The notes under the pieces: generated by a model | The model's database searches: none | The model's input: only the letters and a program-made list of their open reading frames with translations | Told to the model about the DNA's origin: nothing | Shown: positions 2,645-18,297 of the stretch, piece after piece | Layout of the letters: each line of letters starts with the position of its first letter | How positions within the stretch are numbered: position 1 is the first letter of the stretch | Virus record (IMG/VR): IMGVR_UViG_2778261535_000006 | Span: 1 to 21,603 of that record | DNA: 21,603 nucleotides | Direction: 5' to 3' (one strand) | Source of the DNA: a virus | Taxonomy: Duplodnaviria > Heunggongvirae > Uroviricota > Caudoviricetes | Translations under genes and position numbers: made by a program

Positions 2645-3349
2645 TTAACTGACAGTTACGGTGCAGGAAGTGGAGGTCACCTTATTAACCGGGCTTGCTG
2701 AATCAGAAACCTCACAGGTATACGCACCGGCATCTCCGGATGTCACGGAGGCCTTGTTGAAAGTTGCCGATGTCTGCCCGGAAACTGGAGAGCTGCCTTT
2801 CTTCCAGACATATGAATAAGGAGGCACACCACCTGATGCCTCAACAGACATATTCAGCGTTTCACTGGCAGAAACCTGTAGTGTACTTTTCAAATCAGAG
2901 AGGAGTTTCAAAGGTTCAGTGGTCAGAGAGGGCTTTCCTTTCAGGCGCAGGGAAAATGTGGCAGCAACAACACCGTTGGTTCCCACAGACCAGGTATGCT
3001 GGCGAACTTCTGCCATAAAGGTAAATCCATTTCCTGACGGGAAAATAACTTTGAAACCGTATGTGGTGTCGTTGTCATAAGCACTACGCAACGCGTTCTG
3101 GGCAGCGTTGAGATAAAAGTTTCCTGACATGGAAATCTCTGAAGCAGCCCCAAGACCGTTGATATTCTCCTGCTCGGTAGAACACAGCGTAGTGACATCA
3201 ATATCCTGTTTCTGCCCGGCGGTAAACTGAACCTCTTTAATCGTACAGCTCAGTTCAAGAAAACTGGCAGAACTCAGCGTTTCTGCCGTTACCGGTGCAG
3301 ACGAGATCATGACTTTGGTCTGCTGAGAACGTTCAAAATTAGAGGACAT
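2645..3349 (-). CDS. Major tail protein with C-terminal Ig-like (Big_2-type) domain
   Basis: Start taken at ATG 3349 (MSSNFERS...) with GGAG 7 nt upstream rather than the track start at 3400. C-terminal ~80 aa Ser/Thr-rich with the Ig-like pattern PPYSYVWKKG...GAYTCEVSD...CTVTV. Sits between tail completion genes and the G/GT pair. Confidence 0.7.
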   Translation of the reverse strand: MSSNFERSQQTKVMISSAPVTAETLSSASFLELSCTIKEVQFTAGQKQDIDVTTLCSTEQENINGLGAASEISMSGNFYLNAAQNALRSAYDNDTTYGFKVIFPSGNGFTFMAEVRQHTWSVGTNGVVAATFSLRLKGKPSLTTEPLKLLSDLKSTLQVSASETLNMSVEASGGVPPYSYVWKKGSSPVSGQTSATFNKASVTSGDAGAYTCEVSDSASPVNKVTSTSCTVTVS

Positions 3350-3361
3350 ACTCGTCTCCTG

Positions 3362-3387
3362 AAAATAAAAAACCCGCCAGCGGCGGG
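3362..3387 (-). terminator. Terminator-like hairpin plus U-run immediately upstream of the major tail gene RBS
   Basis: Minus strand: CCCGCC-GCT-GGCGGG (3373..3387) followed by TTTTTTATTTT, then CAGGAG and ATG 3349. Confidence 0.45.
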
Positions 3388-3408
3388 TGGGTAAAATCAT
3401 TAACGACC

Positions 3409-3753
3409 TCAGGCAATTACCTGAAATTCAAGCGTAGCTCTGCTCAGACGGGAATCAGGATCATAACCCTGAGTTTTAGAAATAACGGATGGTGCCAGTT
3501 CCCTTACCGCATCAAGCGCCTGCTCACGGATATCATCTGCGTCATCAGGAGCCGTTGCCCAGATATCAATCTGCACTGTGATTCTGGATTCAGCCTGACC
3601 ATCAAGCACATCAGACGCGATGTCAGACACCACTGAAAACACCAGCCATGGTGGAAATACCGCAGGCTTTCCCTCCGTCAGCGGGACCACATAAGGATAA
3701 ACCTGCCCTCCGGCCAGTTTGGACAGAAGAGCATACAGCGTGGCTTCTCTCAT
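3409..3753 (-). CDS. Tail component, probable tail terminator / tail completion protein
   Basis: 114-aa ORF between the HK97 gp10-like gene and the major tail gene; call is by position in the head-tail joining block only. Confidence 0.45.
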   Translation of the reverse strand: MREATLYALLSKLAGGQVYPYVVPLTEGKPAVFPPWLVFSVVSDIASDVLDGQAESRITVQIDIWATAPDDADDIREQALDAVRELAPSVISKTQGYDPDSRLSRATLEFQVIA

Positions 3754-4220
3754 TTACTCAGCACCCCATCAATAGCCTGATTCATATGCTTCATGGCAAC
3801 CTGTGCTGCCAGCTCCTCTGTCATATCAAAGGCCGGGCGAATGAACGGATGGGCAGGCATATTGATAGTCCCCAGCTCCACGAAACGCCAGTAAAACGCG
3901 TTTCGCGGATCGCTGGCTTTCATGCTGTTATCACTGTTTCCGGTTCGCAGATTCCGCCCACGAATGTGGACACCAGAGATAATTTCACCACGACGCCGTG
4001 AACGCTGAGTCAGAATAACCACGTTTTTCTTCAGTTTTCCGGTTCGCTCTGGCGCATGGTCAATAACCGCCTCCCGGATAACCTCTGCTCCGGCACGGGA
4101 GGCATCGCGAAGCACCTTATTACTCTCTGCTCTGCTGAGAAGTTCCAGATCTCTTGCAATATCCGCCAGGCCAGAAAAATCCAGACTAAAATCCGTCACA
4201 TTCCACCTCTCTGGCTGCAA
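3750..4220 (-). CDS. Head-tail joining protein (HK97 gp10-like family)
   Basis: 156-aa ORF overlapping its neighbours by 4 and 25 nt; size and position fit this family. Confidence 0.5.
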   Translation of the reverse strand: MQPERWNVTDFSLDFSGLADIARDLELLSRAESNKVLRDASRAGAEVIREAVIDHAPERTGKLKKNVVILTQRSRRRGEIISGVHIRGRNLRTGNSDNSMKASDPRNAFYWRFVELGTINMPAHPFIRPAFDMTEELAAQVAMKHMNQAIDGVLSK

Positions 4221-5710: not shown

Positions 5711-7416
5711 TTTCTGGGTGGCCTGCGGTCTTCTTTCTCGTACAGCATGGCTCTGCCAACCGCCATAATCAGCGCAACTGCACCATCGATTTTGTTTTCC
5801 GCCTGCTCTTTGACGGGCTTCACCACATCATCGTTACCCGGAATGGTTTTGCCGACCACGTTGCCGATACACCAGGTCATGATGGGATTGCCATCATGAT
5901 GAAAGCGCCCCGATTCAATTGCCGCTTCCAGCTCTTTCATCGGGTCGGACATGTTGGTGTAGTTCTGAATGATAGTGATGGGGTTCAGGTCTTCATCAGC
6001 AAGGTCATGTGACAACCCGGTCGCCCCGAAGGGGTCGATGGGTGACTCACTGACCGGGCTGATTTTGTTCGCCGCTTTGGCCTCCTCGAGGATGTAGCGA
6101 TAATCCACCTCCGCACCATCGGTAACGGTCAGAACGCCCATTTCCACCCATTTCTGAAAGCGTTCGGCTGTCCGTCGATCTTCATTTTTCTCGACGCTGT
6201 ACACCGTGTCATACGGTACCCAGAAACGCGGGGCCACACTGTAGTAATGCGTTTTACCGTCAATCTCGCGGGTATAAAGTCGCGCCATGCTGTTCATATC
6301 CAGCTTACGCGCCAGGTCAAAGGCCAGAATGCACGGCTGCCCCTCGAACTGCTCAAGGGTCAGTGATTTATCCTCGCAGCTCTGCCAGCTCACCAGGTTG
6401 AAATACGCCGAACGCGCCGACACCCAGATATTGAGGTGTTTTGTTTTAAAGACGTTTGCCAGACGGGCGTTATTTTTCGCACGCTGCTGCTGACTTAACA
6501 AAAATTCGCGATAAACCGACACGCCAATATTCGGGTTAGCTTTTTCCAGCACCTGCGGGTCGGTCCAGTCATCGCCTTCGTCAACGGTATAGATGATCCC
6601 GAACAGTTCATCGTTGGGTACCGACCCGTTGAGCATCTCGATAACTTCCCGTCGCTTGTCGTAGCACGGCCCCTCAATGTTGTACCCGGCAGTAGTAATG
6701 GCCCACATCAGTGGCTGACGTCGCGCCCCCATCCCGGTAAGCATCGTGGTGTAAAGCGCATCGGTGGCGTGCTCGTGATATTCATCCACCACCGCACAGT
6801 GGGGTGATGAACCATCACCGGGGTTACCGATCAGCGGTTCAAACCGCGCGCCATCCTCCGGACGATTCATGTTTGAGGCGTTAACCTCAATCCCGAACGC
6901 TTCCGTCAGCATGGGTGTGCGTTTACACATCAGTCTTGCCGGACGAAAGACTTCCCATGCCTGTTTCTCCGTCGTGGCACCGGAATACACTTCCGCGCCG
7001 AACTCGTTATCACAGGCAAAACAATACAGGGCGACACCGGCAGAGATTGCTGATTTGCCGTTCTTACGGGGGATTTCGGTATACACCTCCCGGAAGCGGC
7101 GCAGCCGGGAGCCTTTATTGACCCAGCCAAACGCGCAGCAGATCACAAAGAGCTGCCACGGCTCCAGCGTGATGGGCATCCTCTTGAATGCCCACTCACC
7201 CTTGGTGTGCGGCAACAGCTGAATAAATTTGGCGGCCCGTTCAGCCAGGTCCTTGTCGAAGCGGTAACGAAACGACTTACTTTTTTCCGCCATCAGGTCA
7301 TCAAGATGGCGCTGGCAGGCCTGAATCACAAACTGGCAGGCCACAATCTTTCCGCGCACAACATCACGGGCATACTGATTGGCAGCATTTACGTTGGGGT
7401 AAGATTTCCGGCTCAT
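5500..7416 (-). CDS. Terminase large subunit; 3' end is abnormal and reads out of frame ~70 codons into the capsid remnant
   Basis: 638-aa ORF, ATGA overlap with the small terminase stop. Terminase-like through ...[22 protein letters not shown], then low-complexity Pro/Arg/Trp-rich text ([19 protein letters not shown]...) that is capsid DNA in the wrong frame. Confidence 0.8.
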
Positions 7417-8032: not shown

Positions 8033-8383
8033 TTACTTCAGCCGTTCACGAGCCGTTTTCGCCTTATGACACGGCCAGCACAGGCTCTGCAGATTGCTGT
8101 CTGAATCTGTGCCGCCATGCGCTTTAGGAATGATGTGGTCAACGGTTTTCGCCTCACGCACCACACCAGCACGCAGACATAACTGACATAAACCTTTGTC
8201 ACGCTTCAGGACGCGCACGCGGATACCATCCCACTTCGAACCATAACCGCGCTGATGACGGGATTGTCCTGGCTTGTATTGCTTCCAGCCTTCACTTTTG
8301 TGGCTTTCGCAATAGCCTGACGGGTCAGTTGTGGTATGGCGGCAGCCGCGAACACGGCAGGCTTTTGGGGTTCGTGGTGGCAT
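8033..8383 (-). CDS. HNH endonuclease (terminase-associated)
   Basis: Start taken at ATG 8383 (MPPRTPKACRVRGC...) with GGAG 7 nt upstream. Cys-rich with HNH motif ...VDHIIPKAHGGTDSDSNLQSLCWPCH; located just upstream of the terminase genes. Confidence 0.8.
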   Translation of the reverse strand: MPPRTPKACRVRGCRHTTTDPSGYCESHKSEGWKQYKPGQSRHQRGYGSKWDGIRVRVLKRDKGLCQLCLRAGVVREAKTVDHIIPKAHGGTDSDSNLQSLCWPCHKAKTARERLK

Positions 8384-8392
8384 GCTGGCTCC

Positions 8393-8418
8393 AATAAAAA
8401 GCCCCGCGACGCGAGGCT
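8393..8418 (-). terminator. Intrinsic terminator-like hairpin after the small membrane protein gene
   Basis: Minus strand: GCCUCGC-guc-GCGGGGC stem followed by UUUUUAUU, immediately before the HNH RBS. Confidence 0.4.
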
Positions 8419-8448
8419 TAGACAGAAAAAACACCGGATAAGATCTGG

Positions 8449-8652
8449 TCATTCTTCCTTTTTAATAATGACTTCTCGAGGGCGCAATTGTTGGATAGCA
8501 CGACAAATACAATATGGAATAACTGCCCATGCTACTCCCATTGCTGCACCTGCAGCCTGTTGTGGAGCACTCTGAGCACCGAAAACCCCGAGGATTCCTT
8601 CAATAAATCCAATAGCACTACACAAAAGACTGATGACCCAGAGAATTTTCAT
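8449..8652 (-). CDS. Small hydrophobic membrane protein, function unknown
   Basis: ATG 8652 with AGGAG ~9 nt upstream; 67 aa with two hydrophobic segments (ILWVISLLCSAIGFIEGILGVFGA, AAMGVAWAVIPYCICRAI). Confidence 0.5.
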   Translation of the reverse strand: MKILWVISLLCSAIGFIEGILGVFGAQSAPQQAAGAAMGVAWAVIPYCICRAIQQLRPREVIIKKEE

Positions 8653-8769: not shown

Positions 8770-9195
8770 TTATTCCGGTCGCTGGAGTTGCTCATGATGA
8801 TACAGAGCGAGAATCAGGTCATAAGACCCTTGCCTGTCTTTGTAACCAGTTTTATCAACCAATTCAGCTTTACTGATTCCGGGTAAATCAAGAATCAGAT
8901 TCGCAACTTCAATTGCCCTTTGGTACAACTTACCGCCCTTTTTCTCCCCATGCACTGGTTTTACATTCTTGAGGTAACCGCTATCCGCCAGGGCGAGAAA
9001 TGTTGCCCTTGGGCATATCTTCTTTCTTGACGATTCGCTTTCTGTAACCTCTGCGACAGCTGCATCCCATGCATCACGAGGAGTCATTGAGCTATCAGCC
9101 ACCAAATGATAAGCGATTAAAGCAGCGTGAGCGTATTGAGACATAATGCATCCATATACAAAAATCTTATGATAAGACTTTTCTAATATGAACAC
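8770..9195 (-). CDS. Hypothetical protein (start ambiguous: track start 9195 or internal ATG 9144)
   Basis: ORF directly downstream of Rz/Rz1 in the lambda bor position; no motif I can name. Confidence 0.45.
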
Positions 9196-9626: not shown

Positions 9627-10099
9627 ACCTCAATCTCACTGACCGTTCCGCCAGCTTCTTTGAATTTTGCAATCAGGCTGTCAGCCTTATGCTCGAACTG
9701 ACCATAACCAGCGCCCGGCAGTGAAGCCCAGATATTGCTGCAACGGTCGATAGCCTGACGAATATCACCGCGATCAATCATCGGTAAAGCGCCACGCTCT
9801 TTAATCTGCTGCAGTGCAACAGCGTCCTGGCTTTTCGGAGAGAAGTCTTTCAGCCCTAGCTGCTTGCGGTAGGCATCCCACCAACGGGAAAGAAGCTGGT
9901 AACGTCCAGCTGCAGTTGATTTAAGTTGCGGGTTTAGCGTGACAAGTTTGCGAGGGTGATCGGAGTAATCAGTGAAGAGTTCGCCACCGACAATAACGTC
10001 ATAACCGTGATTGCGGGTTGGCTGCCGTCCGTTATCCGTTCCTTCTGACCACGCCAACATATCGAGGAAAGCTTTACGCTGAGGATTAAGATTTTGCAT
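9623..10099 (-). CDS. R: Endolysin, lambda R-type lytic transglycosylase
   Basis: ...[50 protein letters not shown]... is nearly identical to lambda R as I recall it. Confidence 0.9.
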
Positions 10100-10403
10100 T
10101 TTTCACCCCTGTCAGTCGTTCCCAGAAGTACGTCAGTGCAACCGAACCCATCGCACCACTAATCCCCGCCGTCGCGAGAATCATGTAAATGCTGAATCCA
10201 CTTTCGATACTGATCAGGCCACCAATAACACCGGTGAATCCCGATACCACTATCTGAGCCAGAGCATTTATCCAGCTCCACGTTGCTTTACTCTGCTTCA
10301 CATCTATCAGGTAGCGGACCAGACCGCCCCAACCTGCGATGATCAGCAAAACGAGCCAGAACGCTCCGGCAAGGCTCTCTTTTTCGTGCATATGAATAGC
10401 CAA
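10086..10403 (-). CDS. Holin (three predicted TM segments, not lambda S-type)
   Basis: 105 aa, three hydrophobic segments, charged C-terminus, immediately upstream of and overlapping the endolysin gene; Met1 and Met5 (MAIHMHEKE) could form a holin/antiholin dual start. Confidence 0.65.
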   Translation of the reverse strand: MAIHMHEKESLAGAFWLVLLIIAGWGGLVRYLIDVKQSKATWSWINALAQIVVSGFTGVIGGLISIESGFSIYMILATAGISGAMGSVALTYFWERLTGVKNAKS

Positions 10404-10505
10404 TGTTTCGCCGCCGACAAAAGGCCGGGACGTTAAATGTCAGAAATCAGGCTCACGGGGTAATTTAACGACAAAGCACGGAGTTGATGCTCCCCACAAG
10501 CCTGG

Positions 10506-10531
10506 AATAAAAAAGCCAGCATGTAACTGGC
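10506..10531 (-). terminator. Intrinsic terminator in the Q-holin intergenic region (tR'-like)
   Basis: Minus strand: GCCAG-uuacau-GCUGGC followed by UUUUUUAUU. Confidence 0.55.
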
Positions 10532-10608
10532 AACAGAGGGTTAAGCAATATCAACTCAACAGCTGAAGACACCCTGGCTGGGGTAGGTTGGAAGGCTACT
10601 AACCGTCC

Positions 10609-10644
10609 AGAAACAGAAAAGCCCAAAGTTTTAAACCTCGGGCT
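10609..10644 (-). terminator. Second hairpin plus U-rich tract in the Q-holin intergenic region
   Basis: Minus strand: AGCCCGAGG-uuuaaaa-CUUUGGGCU (two G-U pairs) followed by UUUCUGUUUCU; pairing is better on the minus than the plus strand. Confidence 0.35.
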
Positions 10645-10712
10645 TGAATTTGGATTACTGCCAGTGCGTACAACATTGGCAAAATATCAGATTTACACGA
10701 AATATATGCTTT

Positions 10713-11402
10713 TTAATCCAGTTTTGCAATACTTTGCTGTGAAAATGTGGTCTTTTGTTTTGAACGTGTTTTCGTTAAAAGCAATAAAGCTTGGCTATCA
10801 AGCTGTAGAAAAATGTGCTTCATTGCAACCCAGCGTTCAGTAAATGTCTCAGACCAGTTTTTTGATGTCACTCCCACCAGTAATGCCAGCTCCTGGTATT
10901 CATAGGTCTTACGCCCTGCCAGCTCGTTCTTCACATCCTGTGCCGCCAACCAGATCAACTTCTTTAAGCGCTCCAGTGTCTTACTGGCAATTTTTCTTGT
11001 ACCTAACAGCGCCTTAAACTCGCTCCATGCCCACTGCGTTATGGCAACCTGATGCTCCCAGCGAATATTTTCACTGTAACTCCACAGCAACCACGCTTTC
11101 TGATGTTCATCGAGAGACAAAATCGCACGCCGCCACGAAGAGGTTGAAAACTCGACCGAACTGACCAGGGTGACAGATGAACCTTTTGCGTAGGACTGTT
11201 TACCGGAAATCGGCGGATTATCCAGCGTAATCATCTTGCCAGTTACCACATCCAGAATGCGCGGCTTCTTTCGTTTGTATGTACCAGTATCAAATTGTGC
11301 ATGCTCCAGCCAGGCTTCAAGCTGGCCTTTCATTGCTCCGCTCAAATCAGCGGTAGCCACCATGAGTTGCTCGCGGACATACTGTAAATATTGGGTATTC
11401 AT
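10713..11402 (-). CDS. Putative late-gene antiterminator (Q-like, not lambda Q-type)
   Basis: 229-aa ORF between rusA and the lysis cassette, followed by a ~310-bp non-coding region carrying terminator hairpins, as in the lambda Q-pR'-tR'-S arrangement. Call is positional; the sequence does not resemble lambda Q. Confidence 0.45.
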   Translation of the reverse strand: MNTQYLQYVREQLMVATADLSGAMKGQLEAWLEHAQFDTGTYKRKKPRILDVVTGKMITLDNPPISGKQSYAKGSSVTLVSSVEFSTSSWRRAILSLDEHQKAWLLWSYSENIRWEHQVAITQWAWSEFKALLGTRKIASKTLERLKKLIWLAAQDVKNELAGRKTYEYQELALLVGVTSKNWSETFTERWVAMKHIFLQLDSQALLLLTKTRSKQKTTFSQQSIAKLD

Positions 11403-11535
11403 GCGGCAGCTCCTTTCAGTGTTTTGGCGTAATTCCTCAGTATTCGGTAATCGGTCAAAACAGAACCGGGGAAACGATATAAGCGCAGGCGCATCCAGCA
11501 GTGGCGAAGAAGCTCTGCCATATAAAACTCAAACA

Positions 11536-15766: not shown

Positions 15767-16306
15767 TCATATTGCCCCCAGCATGGTGGTGACCATCGCC
15801 ATCAATGGACCAGCCAGATCCGGGTCCACTCGAAACATCGACACAATGCCTTCACTCATCTCCTTCAGTTTCTGGTGGCGTGGTGCGTTGAGAATGACCG
15901 CCTGCTTTGCCTCACTGAGTTCCTTTTCCATTTCAGCCAGCCGAGCCATGAAGCTATCCTGCTCAACCAGGTGGCCGCGATATTCCAGCGGTAGTACCGC
16001 CAGAATTGCCGGGGTCAGTTCACGCACGTTATTTCGGTATTTTTCAGAATCGAATTTGTTATCGAGGAAGCGGAACAGCTTCTGGCGTGCACGACTGACA
16101 TCATCAGGAAAATCGATGGTGCCGCCGCCCTGTGCTCGATACTCATTCACAATGAGTGCGGCAACTACATCCTGATTATCTTCAGCAGACCAGGCGCGGA
16201 CGGCATCACGAATTTTTTCGTGGCCTGGCACCTGTTTTATTTGAGAACGATTTATCACCGCAGTCGGGCTAAATCCGCTAGTCTGTTGGTATGTAAGTGG
16301 TTGCAT
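15767..16306 (-). CDS. YdaT-like protein in the cII position
   Basis: Lies between the cro-like gene and O. Motifs EYRAQGGG and LTPAILAVLPLEYRGHL resemble what I recall of Rac prophage YdaT; unverified. Start taken at the second ATG (16306). Confidence 0.45.
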   Translation of the reverse strand: MQPLTYQQTSGFSPTAVINRSQIKQVPGHEKIRDAVRAWSAEDNQDVVAALIVNEYRAQGGGTIDFPDDVSRARQKLFRFLDNKFDSEKYRNNVRELTPAILAVLPLEYRGHLVEQDSFMARLAEMEKELSEAKQAVILNAPRHQKLKEMSEGIVSMFRVDPDLAGPLMAMVTTMLGAI

Positions 16307-16336
16307 AATCATCGCCTTATCAGTTAACGCCGCAGA

Positions 16337-16564
16337 TTAGGCGGCAGAATTACTCGCGTTAAACAATGGTGCGAGGTCGGGACGAATATCTGCTGGCTTA
16401 ATCTTTCCACCAGTGGCTGAGACAATTTTCATTACATAGCGGGCATCAATTCCGCCACCGTGTAGCCAACGCCAAACAGTGGGCTGGGCTACACCGCATA
16501 GATCTGCCAGTCGTTTTTGACTACCTGTAATACTGATTGCGAGTTGAATGGTTTGATTTGTCAT
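16337..16564 (-). CDS. Cro-like / YdaS-like small HTH regulator
   Basis: ~75 aa, helix-turn-helix-like LADLCGVAQPTVWRW, divergent from the repressor gene across an operator-bearing region; start taken at ATG 16564 with AGGA RBS. Confidence 0.6.
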   Translation of the reverse strand: MTNQTIQLAISITGSQKRLADLCGVAQPTVWRWLHGGGIDARYVMKIVSATGGKIKPADIRPDLAPLFNASNSAA

Positions 16565-16595
16565 TATCAATTCCTATTGGTATTACAATGAATGA

Positions 16596-16624
16596 ATAAT
16601 AGCAATGCGTATTAACCATGGCAA
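16596..16624 (-). promoter_or_regulatory. Putative pR (early rightward-equivalent promoter driving the cro-like operon)
   Basis: Minus strand: -35 TTGCCA (16624..16619), 17-nt spacer, -10 TATTAT (16601..16596), ~30 nt upstream of the cro-like start; overlapped by a palindromic operator candidate. Confidence 0.5.
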
Positions 16625-16662
16625 TAGCAAAACGTGTTTTGACCATCAATACGCAAGCGTAT
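16598..16662. promoter_or_regulatory. OR-like operator cluster between the cro-like and repressor genes
   Basis: Imperfect palindromes TAATAGCAATGCGTATTA (16598..16615) and ATACGCAAGCGTAT (16649..16662) plus AATAGCAA at 16623..16630; the same AATAGCAAT motif recurs at the OL-like site. Confidence 0.4.
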
Positions 16663-16674
16663 AAATTAAAACTT

Positions 16675-17367
16675 ATGAAAAAAGAAACTCTTGCTGATCG
16701 CTTAAACCTAGCGATGGAACAATCTGGGATGTCTCAAGGCGCTCTTGCAAAGGCGTCTGGCGTAGCTCAACCCACAATCTGGAGACTGACAAGCGGCAAC
16801 GCGCGCGGCTCAACAAAAATTGTTGAAATAGCTAATGCATTGGGTGTTCGAACAGAGTGGCTCTCATCAGGCATAGGCCCGATGAGAAATGACGGTCAAC
16901 AATCAGGGAAGCCTACTGTCAACCATTCCAAATACTTCAAGATTGACGTTCTTGATATAGAAGTGAGTGCCGGGCCGGGAGTCATCAACCGTGAGTTTGT
17001 AGAAGTCCTACGCTCGGTTGAGTACTCGTTTGACGATGCTCGTCACATGTTCGATGGCAGGAAGGCGGAAAATATCCGCATCATTAACGTGCGTGGTGAC
17101 AGCATGTCAGGAACGATCGAACCAGGTGATCTGCTGTTCGTTGATATCACGGTTAAATCTTTCGACGGTGATGGCATCTATGCGTTTCTGTACGACGACA
17201 CCGCCCATGTAAAGCGCCTGCAAATGATGAAGGATAAGCTGCTGGTTATCTCTGATAACAAGAGCTACTCACCGTGGGACCCGATCGAGAAAGACGAGAT
17301 GAACCGGGTGTTCATCTTCGGTAAGGTTATTGGGAGCATGCCCCAGACGTACAGGAAACATGGATAA
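16675..17367 (+). CDS. CI-like prophage repressor (N-terminal HTH, C-terminal S24 LexA-like autopeptidase)
   Basis: HTH MSQGALAKASGVAQPTIWRL; peptidase motifs GDSM (Ser) and HVKRLQ (Lys). Start uncertain: ATG 16675 (MKKETLADRL...) has no SD and may be leaderless, whereas the track start 16618 lies inside the putative pR -35. Confidence 0.8.
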   Translation: MKKETLADRLNLAMEQSGMSQGALAKASGVAQPTIWRLTSGNARGSTKIVEIANALGVRTEWLSSGIGPMRNDGQQSGKPTVNHSKYFKIDVLDIEVSAGPGVINREFVEVLRSVEYSFDDARHMFDGRKAENIRIINVRGDSMSGTIEPGDLLFVDITVKSFDGDGIYAFLYDDTAHVKRLQMMKDKLLVISDNKSYSPWDPIEKDEMNRVFIFGKVIGSMPQTYRKHG

Positions 17368-17433: not shown

Positions 17434-18297
17434 ATGGATTGTGACGCTTTACAGGATATAAAAATCTCTCTTAGGTATGACGGAAAAGATGCTTTAAATC
17501 ATGAAATAGATTTGAACTGCCTAGGAGAATCCCTAAAGGGTTTTTCTAAAGTTCTCTCAACAGCAGCTTCTTTCTCTGTTACACAAAAATATAGTAAATA
17601 CATTAATTATCAGGAAGTTAAGGTTTACGCACGCGAAGCAAAAGCTAACTGCTTTACTCTTGAAGCAGTTCTTAACTTCGCCACTCAGAACCAGTTGTTC
17701 TCGGGGATCGCCGCAACTATACTTGGCGCAATACTACAATATATTTTTGCGAGAAATTCTAACAAGAAAGATGAAATGAAAGCTTTGCAGCAGTCACTTG
17801 AAAAGGCCATAGAGGCACTAGGAAACAAGGATGCTGGAACCATTGATAAGTTGATCTCTTTGATTGACCGAATGGCTGTAGAGCTTCGCCCCTCTGTAAG
17901 GCAGGCAGTATCACCTATTGGTAATACTTGCGATCAGATAAGTGTTGCAACAAATGTTGACGGCTGCCTTCTAAAAGTTAACGAGAGAGATAAAGCTGAA
18001 ATTGATAGGCTTGATGATGATGAAGTTCTCGGTCTTCGTGAGTATCGTGCTTTTCTTACAGAATTTGATGCACAAAATATGACAGCTAAAATAATTTTAG
18101 ATGGTGATGACTCAAAAAAGAGAATCACTGCTGAAATTAGCGATCCAGCTGCAGGAAAGAAGAATAACCCGTATATTAGAGCTCTTAGTGCATATATATC
18201 AACCAAAGGTGATCCATCTGCAGTATTCACTATAACCGCAAAGGCTACTGTTAAAAAAGGCCAGATAAACAGGTTATTTATTGTAGATGCGAAATGA
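17434..18297 (+). CDS. Hypothetical 287-aa protein, AT-rich, in the rexAB position downstream of the repressor
   Basis: Clean ORF with its own terminator; one central hydrophobic segment ([19 protein letters not shown]) followed by a predicted helical Lys/Glu-rich region; no motif I recognise. Spot counts on three 60-nt lines give 40%, 42% and 28% GC. Confidence 0.7.

Follow-up and report, generated by a model that had tools for sequence, protein, structure and literature searches.

In the 21,603-nt stretch of viral DNA analyzed here (positions 1 to 21,603 of IMG/VR record IMGVR_UViG_2778261535_000006, hereafter the window), a gap between a Q-like antiterminator gene and the holin gene carries two hairpins followed by U-tracts, and the question it raises is whether the entire gap operates as a single pR'-qut-tR' switch, as the initial annotation had proposed, or whether it is assembled from separate parts. 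Our analysis indicates that this interval in all likelihood controls the late genes of a prophage resembling phage 82, and that it comprises two modules that appear to be inherited independently, one with Q and the other with the holin. Reading such a gap as a Q antitermination switch of the phage 82 type is textbook and already known; the added value lies in the division of the gap into two modules, a link to the small RNA IsrJ, and an uncatalogued module made of a terminator and a stem-loop. The genes, promoter elements, hairpins, and stem-loop described below all lie on the minus strand.

The Q gene, the gap, and the predicted late promoter

The protein encoded by the Q gene (10713..11402) had been described as not of the lambda type, and this proved right: it matched PF06323 as its sole Pfam family (E 5e-92), and it was identical to phage 82 Q (X92588) at 210 of 229 residues (92%). 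The genes 5' of Q follow the nin-region order of phage 82, i.e., orf151, ninE, ybcO, rus, ylcG, and Q, and no solved structures related to Q were found by sequence. The Q reading frame ends with a TAA stop codon at 10715..10713. On the other side of the gap, the holin gene (10086..10403) is of the LydA type (PF16083, E 8e-22), with possible dual starts at TTG 10403 and ATG 10391, the latter being the start used in the RefSeq annotation of the identical holin gene in O157:H7. Counted from the TTG start, the gap is 309 nt, in agreement with the roughly 310 bp of non-coding DNA first reported for it; counted from the ATG start, it is 321 nt. A 53-aa open reading frame that spans both terminators (10465..10626) was rejected as coding, as it had no Pfam match and the frame was not kept in relatives. 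The closest phage by sequence is PhiR47_2 (97% identity), and a similar region was present in 894 of 5426 complete E. coli genomes (approximately 1 in 6), nearly all of them at least 95% identical.

A promoter prediction, one of the checks suggested along with the initial annotation, returned by sequence match a single sigma-70-like site within 9900..11500. This site (10729..10701) consists of a -35 hexamer, TTGCAA (10724..10729), and a -10 hexamer, TATATT (10701..10706), with a 17-bp spacer and 9/12 matches, and it overlaps the Q stop codon. The spacer, AACTGGATTAAAAAGCA (10707..10723), is a candidate Q-binding element (QBE), where Q would be expected to bind given its conservation and the published location of the 82 QBE, which was placed within -31..+30 and between the two promoter hexamers (Wells et al., PMC4914094). 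For 82 pR', Bird et al. described a near-consensus -10-like pause element with an extended -10 motif and a GCC at +15-17, the major pauses falling at +25/+26, where +25 is a U (PMC5001585). In the window, the corresponding sequences are TGaTATTTT at 10689..10681, GCC at 10680..10678, and a T at 10670, and one register fits all four features. The inferred transcription start was set at 10694 because no other +1 places the GCC at +15-17 and the U at +25. With this register, a putative sigma-70-dependent pause-inducing element would occupy 10678..10689 (TG at +6/+7, TATTTT at +9..+14, and GCC at +15..+17), and the predicted promoter-proximal pause, at +25 (U) and +26, would fall at 10669..10670. 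Start, pause, and Q action were assigned by register with the textual description of 82 pR' and by comparison with relatives, not base by base. Transcription would begin within an AAA triplet (10692..10694), which would fit the slippage at initiation reportedly seen at the 82 late promoter.

The promoter and pause sequences were compared in an alignment of seven members of the Q82 family, i.e., the window, 434, PPompW, Klebsiella RCIP0114, Enterobacter ENT1, Cronobacter phiES15, and the region upstream of Gifsy-1 isrJ, among which Q identity ranges from 47 to 92%. Cronobacter phiES15 has TTGAAA as its -35 hexamer and the other six members have TTGCAA; the spacer motif AAAA(C/G)T(G/A)GATT is nearly invariant and is followed by the -10 hexamer, and T.TG.TAT of the pause element is invariant in all seven. 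The spacer sequence AAAACTGGATT, nearly invariant across the family, also encodes the C terminus of Q in the window copy, and Gifsy-1 retains it as non-coding DNA. When the gap was compared with PPompW phages by blastn, its first 54 nt were the sole part kept, together with Q.

Set beside coliphage 82 itself, the window is alike in Q (92% identical), in the promoter hexamers and their 17-bp spacing, and in the features that fit the published description, namely the AAA start, the extended -10-like element, the GCC at +15-17, and the U at +25, with an intrinsic terminator following; it differs by 19 amino acids in Q, and identity of the leader and terminator sequences with those of phage 82 itself is presumptive. 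The lambda pR'-6S RNA-tR' region works by the logic inferred for the window: a late promoter that fires constitutively contains a QBE, polymerase pauses near the promoter in a sigma-70-dependent manner, and lysogens make a short RNA that ends at a terminator. It differs in a pause at +16/17 rather than +25, a leader of approximately 194 nt, the absence of the 63-nt element described below, and a different Q family, which we take to be PF06530. For a lambda-type pR'/qut, the window offered no match, with its Q hitting PF06323 only and its pause register fitting +25.

Hairpin 1 and the predicted leader RNA

A consensus scan detected 7 terminator-like sites in 1.6 kb, compared to 1.8 ± 1.3 in shuffled sequences, and the two hairpin and U-tract sites originally placed at 10609..10644 and 10506..10531 were both recovered once their tails were counted. 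Hairpin 1 (10610..10645) has a stem at 10645..10619 (+50..+76) with 12 pairs and a loop of 3, followed by a U-rich tail, TTCTGTTTCT in the consensus scan and also given as UUCUGUUUC. Folded alone, it reached -15.7 kcal/mol (z -3.5), and 1 of 200 shuffles was as good. Six of the seven aligned phages have a GC hairpin with a T-run at a distance of approximately 50-80 nt from the start, and none was found within the aligned stretch of RCIP0114; terminators occupy the same place as hairpin 1 in 434, Gifsy-1 isrJ, PPompW, ENT1, and phiES15. Because the pR' block and the terminator are conserved with Q in relatives, hairpin 1 is, judged from its sequence and context, the tR' of the 82-type module, and its read-through by Q-modified polymerase is predicted. 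Of the pR'-qut-tR' arrangement that the initial annotation had built from both hairpins, the sequence-level predictions stand for hairpin 1, while hairpin 2 falls in a separate, holin-linked module. Altogether, the results suggest that the Q-holin gap is very probably a late control region of the phage 82 type, with promoter, Q-loading pause site, and terminator, a system that is already known.

The predicted leader RNA is approximately 84 nt long (10694 to ~10611) and contains two hairpins. The first of these (10658..10682; +13..+37) appears in both the minimum-energy and the centroid folds of +1..+85 and is the counterpart of helix 1 in the isrJ model of Rfam. An Rfam scan of the region, which had also been suggested at the outset, gave no family at its gathering score. 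In a relaxed scan, isrJ (RF01393) matched 10697..10618 (-3..+77) over its full length and with both helices (28.5 bits, E 0.0022); this lies below the gathering score of 37 bits, and by the Rfam criterion the window leader is not a member. The trpB motif, SNORA81, and other matches at relaxed E-values were dismissed as noise, leaving isrJ as the sole credible match. For comparison, the true isrJ of Gifsy-1 scored 100.3 bits against RF01393.

The Gifsy-1 isrJ gene lies directly behind ATTGCAAAACTGGATTAAAA..TATATT, i.e., the promoter block of the window (20 nt), which in Gifsy-1 is not the end of a Q gene. In addition to this block, IsrJ and the window leader have in common the two-hairpin layout, the 5' sequence UGUAAAUCUGAUAU, and the terminator flanks CAAAUUCAAGCC..GGCUUU; they differ in the sequence of the first hairpin, and in Gifsy-1, unlike the window, an isrK-orf45-anrP insertion separates the promoter from antQ. 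These similarities suggest that the window leader is related to IsrJ, below the Rfam threshold. A tRNA, whose absence from the gap had been noted from the beginning, was found nowhere in the whole window by ARAGORN or by the Rfam tRNA model, whereas PPompW and Gifsy-1 have tRNAs at the position downstream of Q. In RefSeq, pR', tR', and the IsrJ-like leader RNA are all three without annotation.

Lambda, 21, phi80, 82, and P22 are known to make short pR' RNAs, and StxS, the terminated PR' RNA of Stx phages, is an Hfq-dependent functional sRNA (PMC7547250). Like the window leader, StxS is a short RNA from an antiterminated late promoter in lysogens, and by analogy it sets a precedent for a possible trans-acting function of the ~84-nt leader, although it belongs with a different Q family and no sequence relation between the two was detected.

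Hairpin 2 and the stem-loop preceding the lysis genes

Hairpin 2 (10509..10531) is a terminator-like site with a GC stem at 10531..10515 (6 pairs, 4 of them G-C, loop of 5) and a T6 run, the tail in the consensus scan being TTTTTTATTC; folded alone, it reached -9.8 kcal/mol (z -3.7), and none of 200 shuffles was as good. We compared the extent of homology to the window among 80 viral contigs encoding an identical holin. In most of these contigs the homology extends through Q; one group, which encodes a 250-aa PF03589 Q, shares only approximately 175 nt next to the holin, hairpin 2 included, and other contigs have just approximately 45 nt in common with the window. At loci with a PF03589 Q, homology to the window breaks at approximately 10566, and hairpin 2 and the holin are kept behind this Q in loci L005 and L037. 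When the gap was compared with phages by blastn, PhiR47_2 and mEp237 were the sole matches for the holin-proximal part. The latter phage has a different hairpin with a T-run at the place of hairpin 2, followed by an 80%-identical stretch, and its 92-aa holin has no blastn similarity to the window holin. Phage HK225 shows the layout of the window, with tR', a second terminator, and then the 63-nt element.

Because hairpin 2 is kept with the holin behind an unrelated Q (PF03589), we assign it on this sequence evidence to a holin-linked module, separate from the Q/pR'/tR' module. It is highly improbable that hairpin 2 is instead the functional tR' and hairpin 1 merely a leader or pause structure: hairpin 2 does have the cleaner, uninterrupted T6 run, but it is hairpin 1 that has a 12-bp stem, aligns with the IsrJ terminator helix, and matches the terminators that directly follow pR' in 434, PPompW, ENT1, and phiES15, and hairpin 2 goes with the holin also where the Q proteins are unrelated. 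Hairpin 2 would most likely serve as a fail-safe terminator, stopping polymerase that escaped tR' without Q; its short stem, of only 6 bp, counts against this reading.

Beyond hairpin 2 lies a conserved 63-nt stem-loop element in the leader (10446..10506), recognized by a covariance model (R1), by its fold, and by compensatory changes. In the window, the stem lies 10 nt beyond the end of hairpin 2, and the holin start is 43-55 nt downstream. The outer stem is formed by pairing of CAGGCTTGTGGGG (10504..10492) with CCCCGTGAGCCTG (10460..10448), the loop carries GTGCTTTGTCGTTAAAT, and the fold reaches -22.8 kcal/mol (z -3.2). The window copy (10506..10446) scored 57.8 bits with R1 (E 2.5e-12), a score that is partly circular as this copy is in the seed alignment of the model. 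In general form, the element is a 12-13-bp stem closing a loop of approximately 33 nt.

Two pattern scans of IMG/VR for the composite of terminator and element matched at least 119 and at least 120 contigs, and the composite is present in more than 240 viral contigs and in Enterobacteriaceae prophages. Its order is a variable GC hairpin with a T-run, then the conserved element, most commonly in the form CAGGCTCACGGGAATCATCCGCTACGTGCTTTGTTGATAAATCCAGCCCGTGAAGCCTG, and 3' of the element a CA-rich stretch, a hairpin that holds the Shine-Dalgarno sequence, and the first gene of the lysis region. At the place of this last hairpin, the window has a small hairpin just 5' of the holin starts (10409..10432), which is weak at -11.8 kcal/mol and a z of only -0.9. 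The matches listed comprise 124 distinct upstream segments; 114 of these have a terminator-like hairpin whose end precedes the element by 7-12 nt, and these 114 hairpins, again among the matches listed, have 51 different stem arms. The element accompanies both PF06323 and PF03589 Q proteins and at least 6 holin N-terminal types, and the following gene starts approximately 45-70 nt after it in most copies. Its orientation is that of the late strand in every copy seen, and occasionally two copies flank a moron (L336 and L250).

Substitutions in the stem retain pairing, as in the variants GGCTCA/TGA(A)GCC, GACCCT/(C)AGGGTC, and GGCCCC/(A)GGGCC, and in CAGG/CCTG compared to CGGG/CCCG, with G-U intermediates. 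In an unbiased MAFFT alignment, the upper helix was 97.5% paired, compared to 27-52% with the partner slid; pair 13-53 was GC in 93 sequences, AU in 6, and GU in 7, and pair 9-58 was UA in 39, CG in 38, and UG in 33. In an alignment-free test, cognate arms had a mean of -21.0 kcal/mol and swapped arms -18.6 ± 0.3 kcal/mol, with 0 of 2000 permutations as low, noting that the shuffle and permutation controls leave the phylogenetic relatedness of the sequences in place. Independent copies (L349, L350, and L333-L347) scored 58-88 bits with R1, the range given also for copies in Citrobacter, Klebsiella, Enterobacter, and Pseudocitrobacter genomes, Gifsy-2, HK225, and the Q82-family phages RCIP0114 and ENT1. 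By the same model, no copy was found in lambda (with filters off), 434, Gifsy-1, or YYZ-2008. Rfam 15 has no family for the element, the Gifsy-2 and HK225 copies included, and among 43 phage records with the element, an occasional "hypothetical protein" is all that is annotated over it. In the literature searched, the element and pause-element sequences gave no relevant text match, and no description of a terminator and stem-loop module upstream of lysis genes was found.

Several other explanations of the conserved element were examined and rejected. A promoter scan found no sigma-70-like promoter inside or just before the element in the window or in HK225. By eye, key bases of sigma-E, sigma-32, sigma-28, and extended -10 promoters are missing at the element, and for an ops site, an IHF consensus, or an integron attC core, the matching bases are at variable positions of the alignment or are missing from the most frequent variant. 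An in-frame upstream extension of the holin from a GTG codon through the element is open in only some relatives. A conserved inner hairpin within the loop (columns 25-27 with 34-36) is not supported, its middle pair being broken in 49 of 111 sequences and double changes being absent.

From its context, a role of the element at the RNA level, on the late strand, is favored. It is quite possible, if somewhat short of probable, that hairpin 2 and the stem-loop form an uncatalogued, structured, cis-acting RNA module that marks where the lysis and late genes are entered in many Enterobacteriaceae lambdoid phages, whatever the family of their Q (PF06323 or PF03589) or holin, in which the terminator would exclude unmodified polymerase and the stem-loop would act on the late transcript. 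The stem-loop could be a processing site or 5' stabilizer, could control translation of holin and antiholin, or could act on the elongation complex in the manner of HK022 put, an RNA that does so.

Two other readings of this composite were weighed against the cis-acting RNA module. Hairpin 2 might chiefly be the 3' end of a prophage sRNA, or the relic of a moron terminator, with a stable RNA ending at 10508 that acts in trans and would come from polymerase reading through tR' or from processing of the late transcript, rather than a safety terminator. This is unlikely, though it draws on a parallel: PasA and PasC of Stx-type prophages adjoin the holin/lysozyme operon and are released by cleavage of a longer transcript, with an intrinsic terminator at their 3' end (bioRxiv 10.64898/2026.05.13.724894), and phage YYZ-2008, named in the same report as PasA-containing, has such a terminator approximately 45 nt before its holin. 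The Pas region and the window both have an intrinsic terminator right before the lysis cassette and 3' of a zone of moron insertion; in many members of the family described here the hairpin follows a moron open reading frame, and a subset has a common ACCCTC..TTGCC motif just before it. Compared by way of the YYZ-2008 intergenic region, however, the two show no sequence similarity: that region was found to have no resemblance to the window gap, blastn of the gap gave no Stx-phage match for the holin-proximal part, and R1 detected no 63-nt stem-loop after the terminator. Moreover, across the family the sequence 5' of the hairpin is not conserved whereas the part 3' of the T-run is, HK225 has no same-strand gene before the hairpin, and PasA/C were reported only in Escherichia and Shigella (bioRxiv 10.64898/2026.05.13.724894). 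An sRNA 3' end at this site could also coexist with the terminator role.

Quite improbable is the second reading, that the 63-nt element, with hairpin 2, acts as DNA, either as an inverted-repeat site for a dimeric protein or as a recombination junction at which Q/moron and lysis modules are swapped, the covariation then reflecting concerted change of half-sites. Mosaic breakpoints do cluster on either side of the element, its two copies around a moron in L336 and L250 would suit such a junction, and the fold energies of sense and antisense are nearly equal, the sense strand of the arm pairs being the stabler in 46 and the less stable in 37. These points have to be set against the constant orientation to late transcription in all copies seen, and against the approximately 7% of predicted stem pairs that are G-U, including three consecutive wobbles in the window copy that pair only on the late strand. 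In addition, the bulge shifts its position with pairing kept, approximately 35 nt separate the two arms, conservation is highest at bases of the loop, and R1 scored L350 at 58.4 bits in sense but 16 in antisense.

A proposed mechanism of late gene control and its implications

In the mechanism that we propose, the first module, inherited with Q, would provide pR', a sigma-70 promoter that is constitutively active and overlaps the end of the Q gene. Polymerase would start at approximately 10694, sigma-70 would re-bind the extended -10-like element at +6..+14, and the complex would pause at +25/+26. Without Q, transcription would terminate at hairpin 1 (tR'), releasing the two-hairpin, IsrJ-related leader RNA of approximately 84 nt. 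With Q on the QBE spacer, the paused polymerase would be modified and go on to transcribe the lysis and morphogenesis genes, passing every terminator on the way. The second module, inherited with the holin, would begin with hairpin 2, approximately 187 nt from the start, which would halt polymerase leaking past tR' and in this way may keep the lysis genes silent in the lysogen against leak from pR' and, in relatives, against moron promoters. The 63-nt stem-loop, located in the leader that precedes the first lysis gene, would be made by terminator-resistant polymerase only and may condition the lysis mRNA through processing, stability, or translation.

For the last step, lambda offers an analogy. 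Its leader between tR' and S is highly structured (z -4.1), as is the window leader, whose fold over its entire length has a z of -4.5, with no similarity of sequence or model (R1) between them. The lambda late leader has the sdi stem-loop at S, and a 1988 study by Daniels et al. is said to deal with RNase III processing sites in this leader. Because the lambda late leader is also highly structured, a role of the 63-nt element in processing or translation control is plausible.

The main use of this reading of the region is correct annotation of pR', tR', and the IsrJ-like leader RNA. For Salmonella, the comparison indicates that the virulence-associated sRNA IsrJ may be the terminated leader of an 82-type late promoter, one that appears to have been displaced from antQ by an inserted antirepressor module, and it yields a concrete prediction of the place where AntQ would load. 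The module of terminator and stem-loop is widespread before lysis cassettes, has covariation support, and is without an Rfam entry. If functional, it would give a new handle on how the lysis genes are silenced in lysogens despite constitutive late and moron promoters, and on how the late mRNA is conditioned.

The isrJ region of Gifsy-1

In Gifsy-1 (NC_010392), we examined the late-promoter/isrJ region (3178-4125) and found that isrJ is preceded by an 82-type promoter block, i.e., the pR' arrangement of the phage 82 family, consisting here of ATTGCAAAACTGGATTAAAA, a -10 element, and a TGATAT pause element. The block follows antQ at a distance of approximately 850 nt, an interval filled by the isrK-orf45-anrP unit, which resembles a P1-type antirepressor module because its Rfam matches are isrK, C4 antisense RNA, and c4-a1b1. 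According to published papers, the antiterminated promoter in Gifsy-1 is the isrK promoter. With this block upstream of isrJ and an antirepressor-like unit separating it from antQ, the sequence suggests that the late promoter truly responsive to AntQ is the one before isrJ and that IsrJ is its terminated leader.

Sequences surrounding hairpin 2 and the holin start

Directly 5' of the variable hairpin, which in the window is the holin-linked, terminator-like hairpin 2, a motif (A)CCCTC(N2-8)TTG(C/T)C was found in the window (10566-10532; CTTAACCCTCTGTTGCCAG) and, among the matches listed, in a subset of family members (for example, TTACCCTCATGCTTATTGCCCGC). An RNA ending at hairpin 2 could carry this motif as a seed-like region.

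The 5' end of the holin open reading frame (10391-10403, minus strand) reads TTG-GCT-ATT-CAT-ATG, encoding M-A-I-H-M, and the holins located downstream of the 63-nt leader element in relatives begin with MTRM, MKM, MRM, or MSRM; these N termini are reminiscent of lambda S, with its dual-start holin/antiholin motif. The window holin start is preceded by a small hairpin, which folded no better than shuffled sequences (z = -0.9).

Immunity and packaging-proximal genes

The CI-like S24 repressor gene (16618-17367, plus strand) is directly followed by a plus-strand gene for a 287-aa DUF7946 and DUF7947 protein (17434-18297), at the position occupied by rexAB in lambda. PADLOC gave only a weak match for this protein, PDC-S42 (E = 1.5e-4), and the gene is a candidate for an exclusion or defence function expressed in the lysogen. 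At the cro/cII positions, genes encoding YdaS-like (77 aa) and YdaT-like (181 aa) proteins lie on the minus strand (15767-16570); both families are named toxins by Pfam, but their location is that of the early regulators in Rac-type prophages. Between the Rz and terminase genes, an HNH endonuclease gene (8033-8452) and a DUF6979 gene (8770-9195) are present on the minus strand; cos-type packaging modules commonly have an HNH gene adjoining the terminase genes.

Possible exchange of leader and lysis-proximal modules

When the tR' hairpin of HK225 (1885-1912) was compared with that of the window (10645-10610), the flanks, TTCAAGCCC...GGGCTTTT.(C/G).TTTCTGG, were similar, as were those of Gifsy-1 isrJ. 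Despite these window-like flanks, the Q of HK225 belongs to PF03589; the leader's terminator portion may be swapped between phages separately from Q and the QBE.

Two loci carry paired copies of the 63-nt element, both on the same strand with a moron in between: L336 from Citrobacter murliniae (6463-7044, minus strand), whose moron is a lipoprotein-like open reading frame of 69 aa, and L250 (125-1638), whose moron comprises a truncated holin start and a 177-aa open reading frame. Such flanking of a moron by same-strand elements suggests that recombination within the 63-nt element swaps modules.
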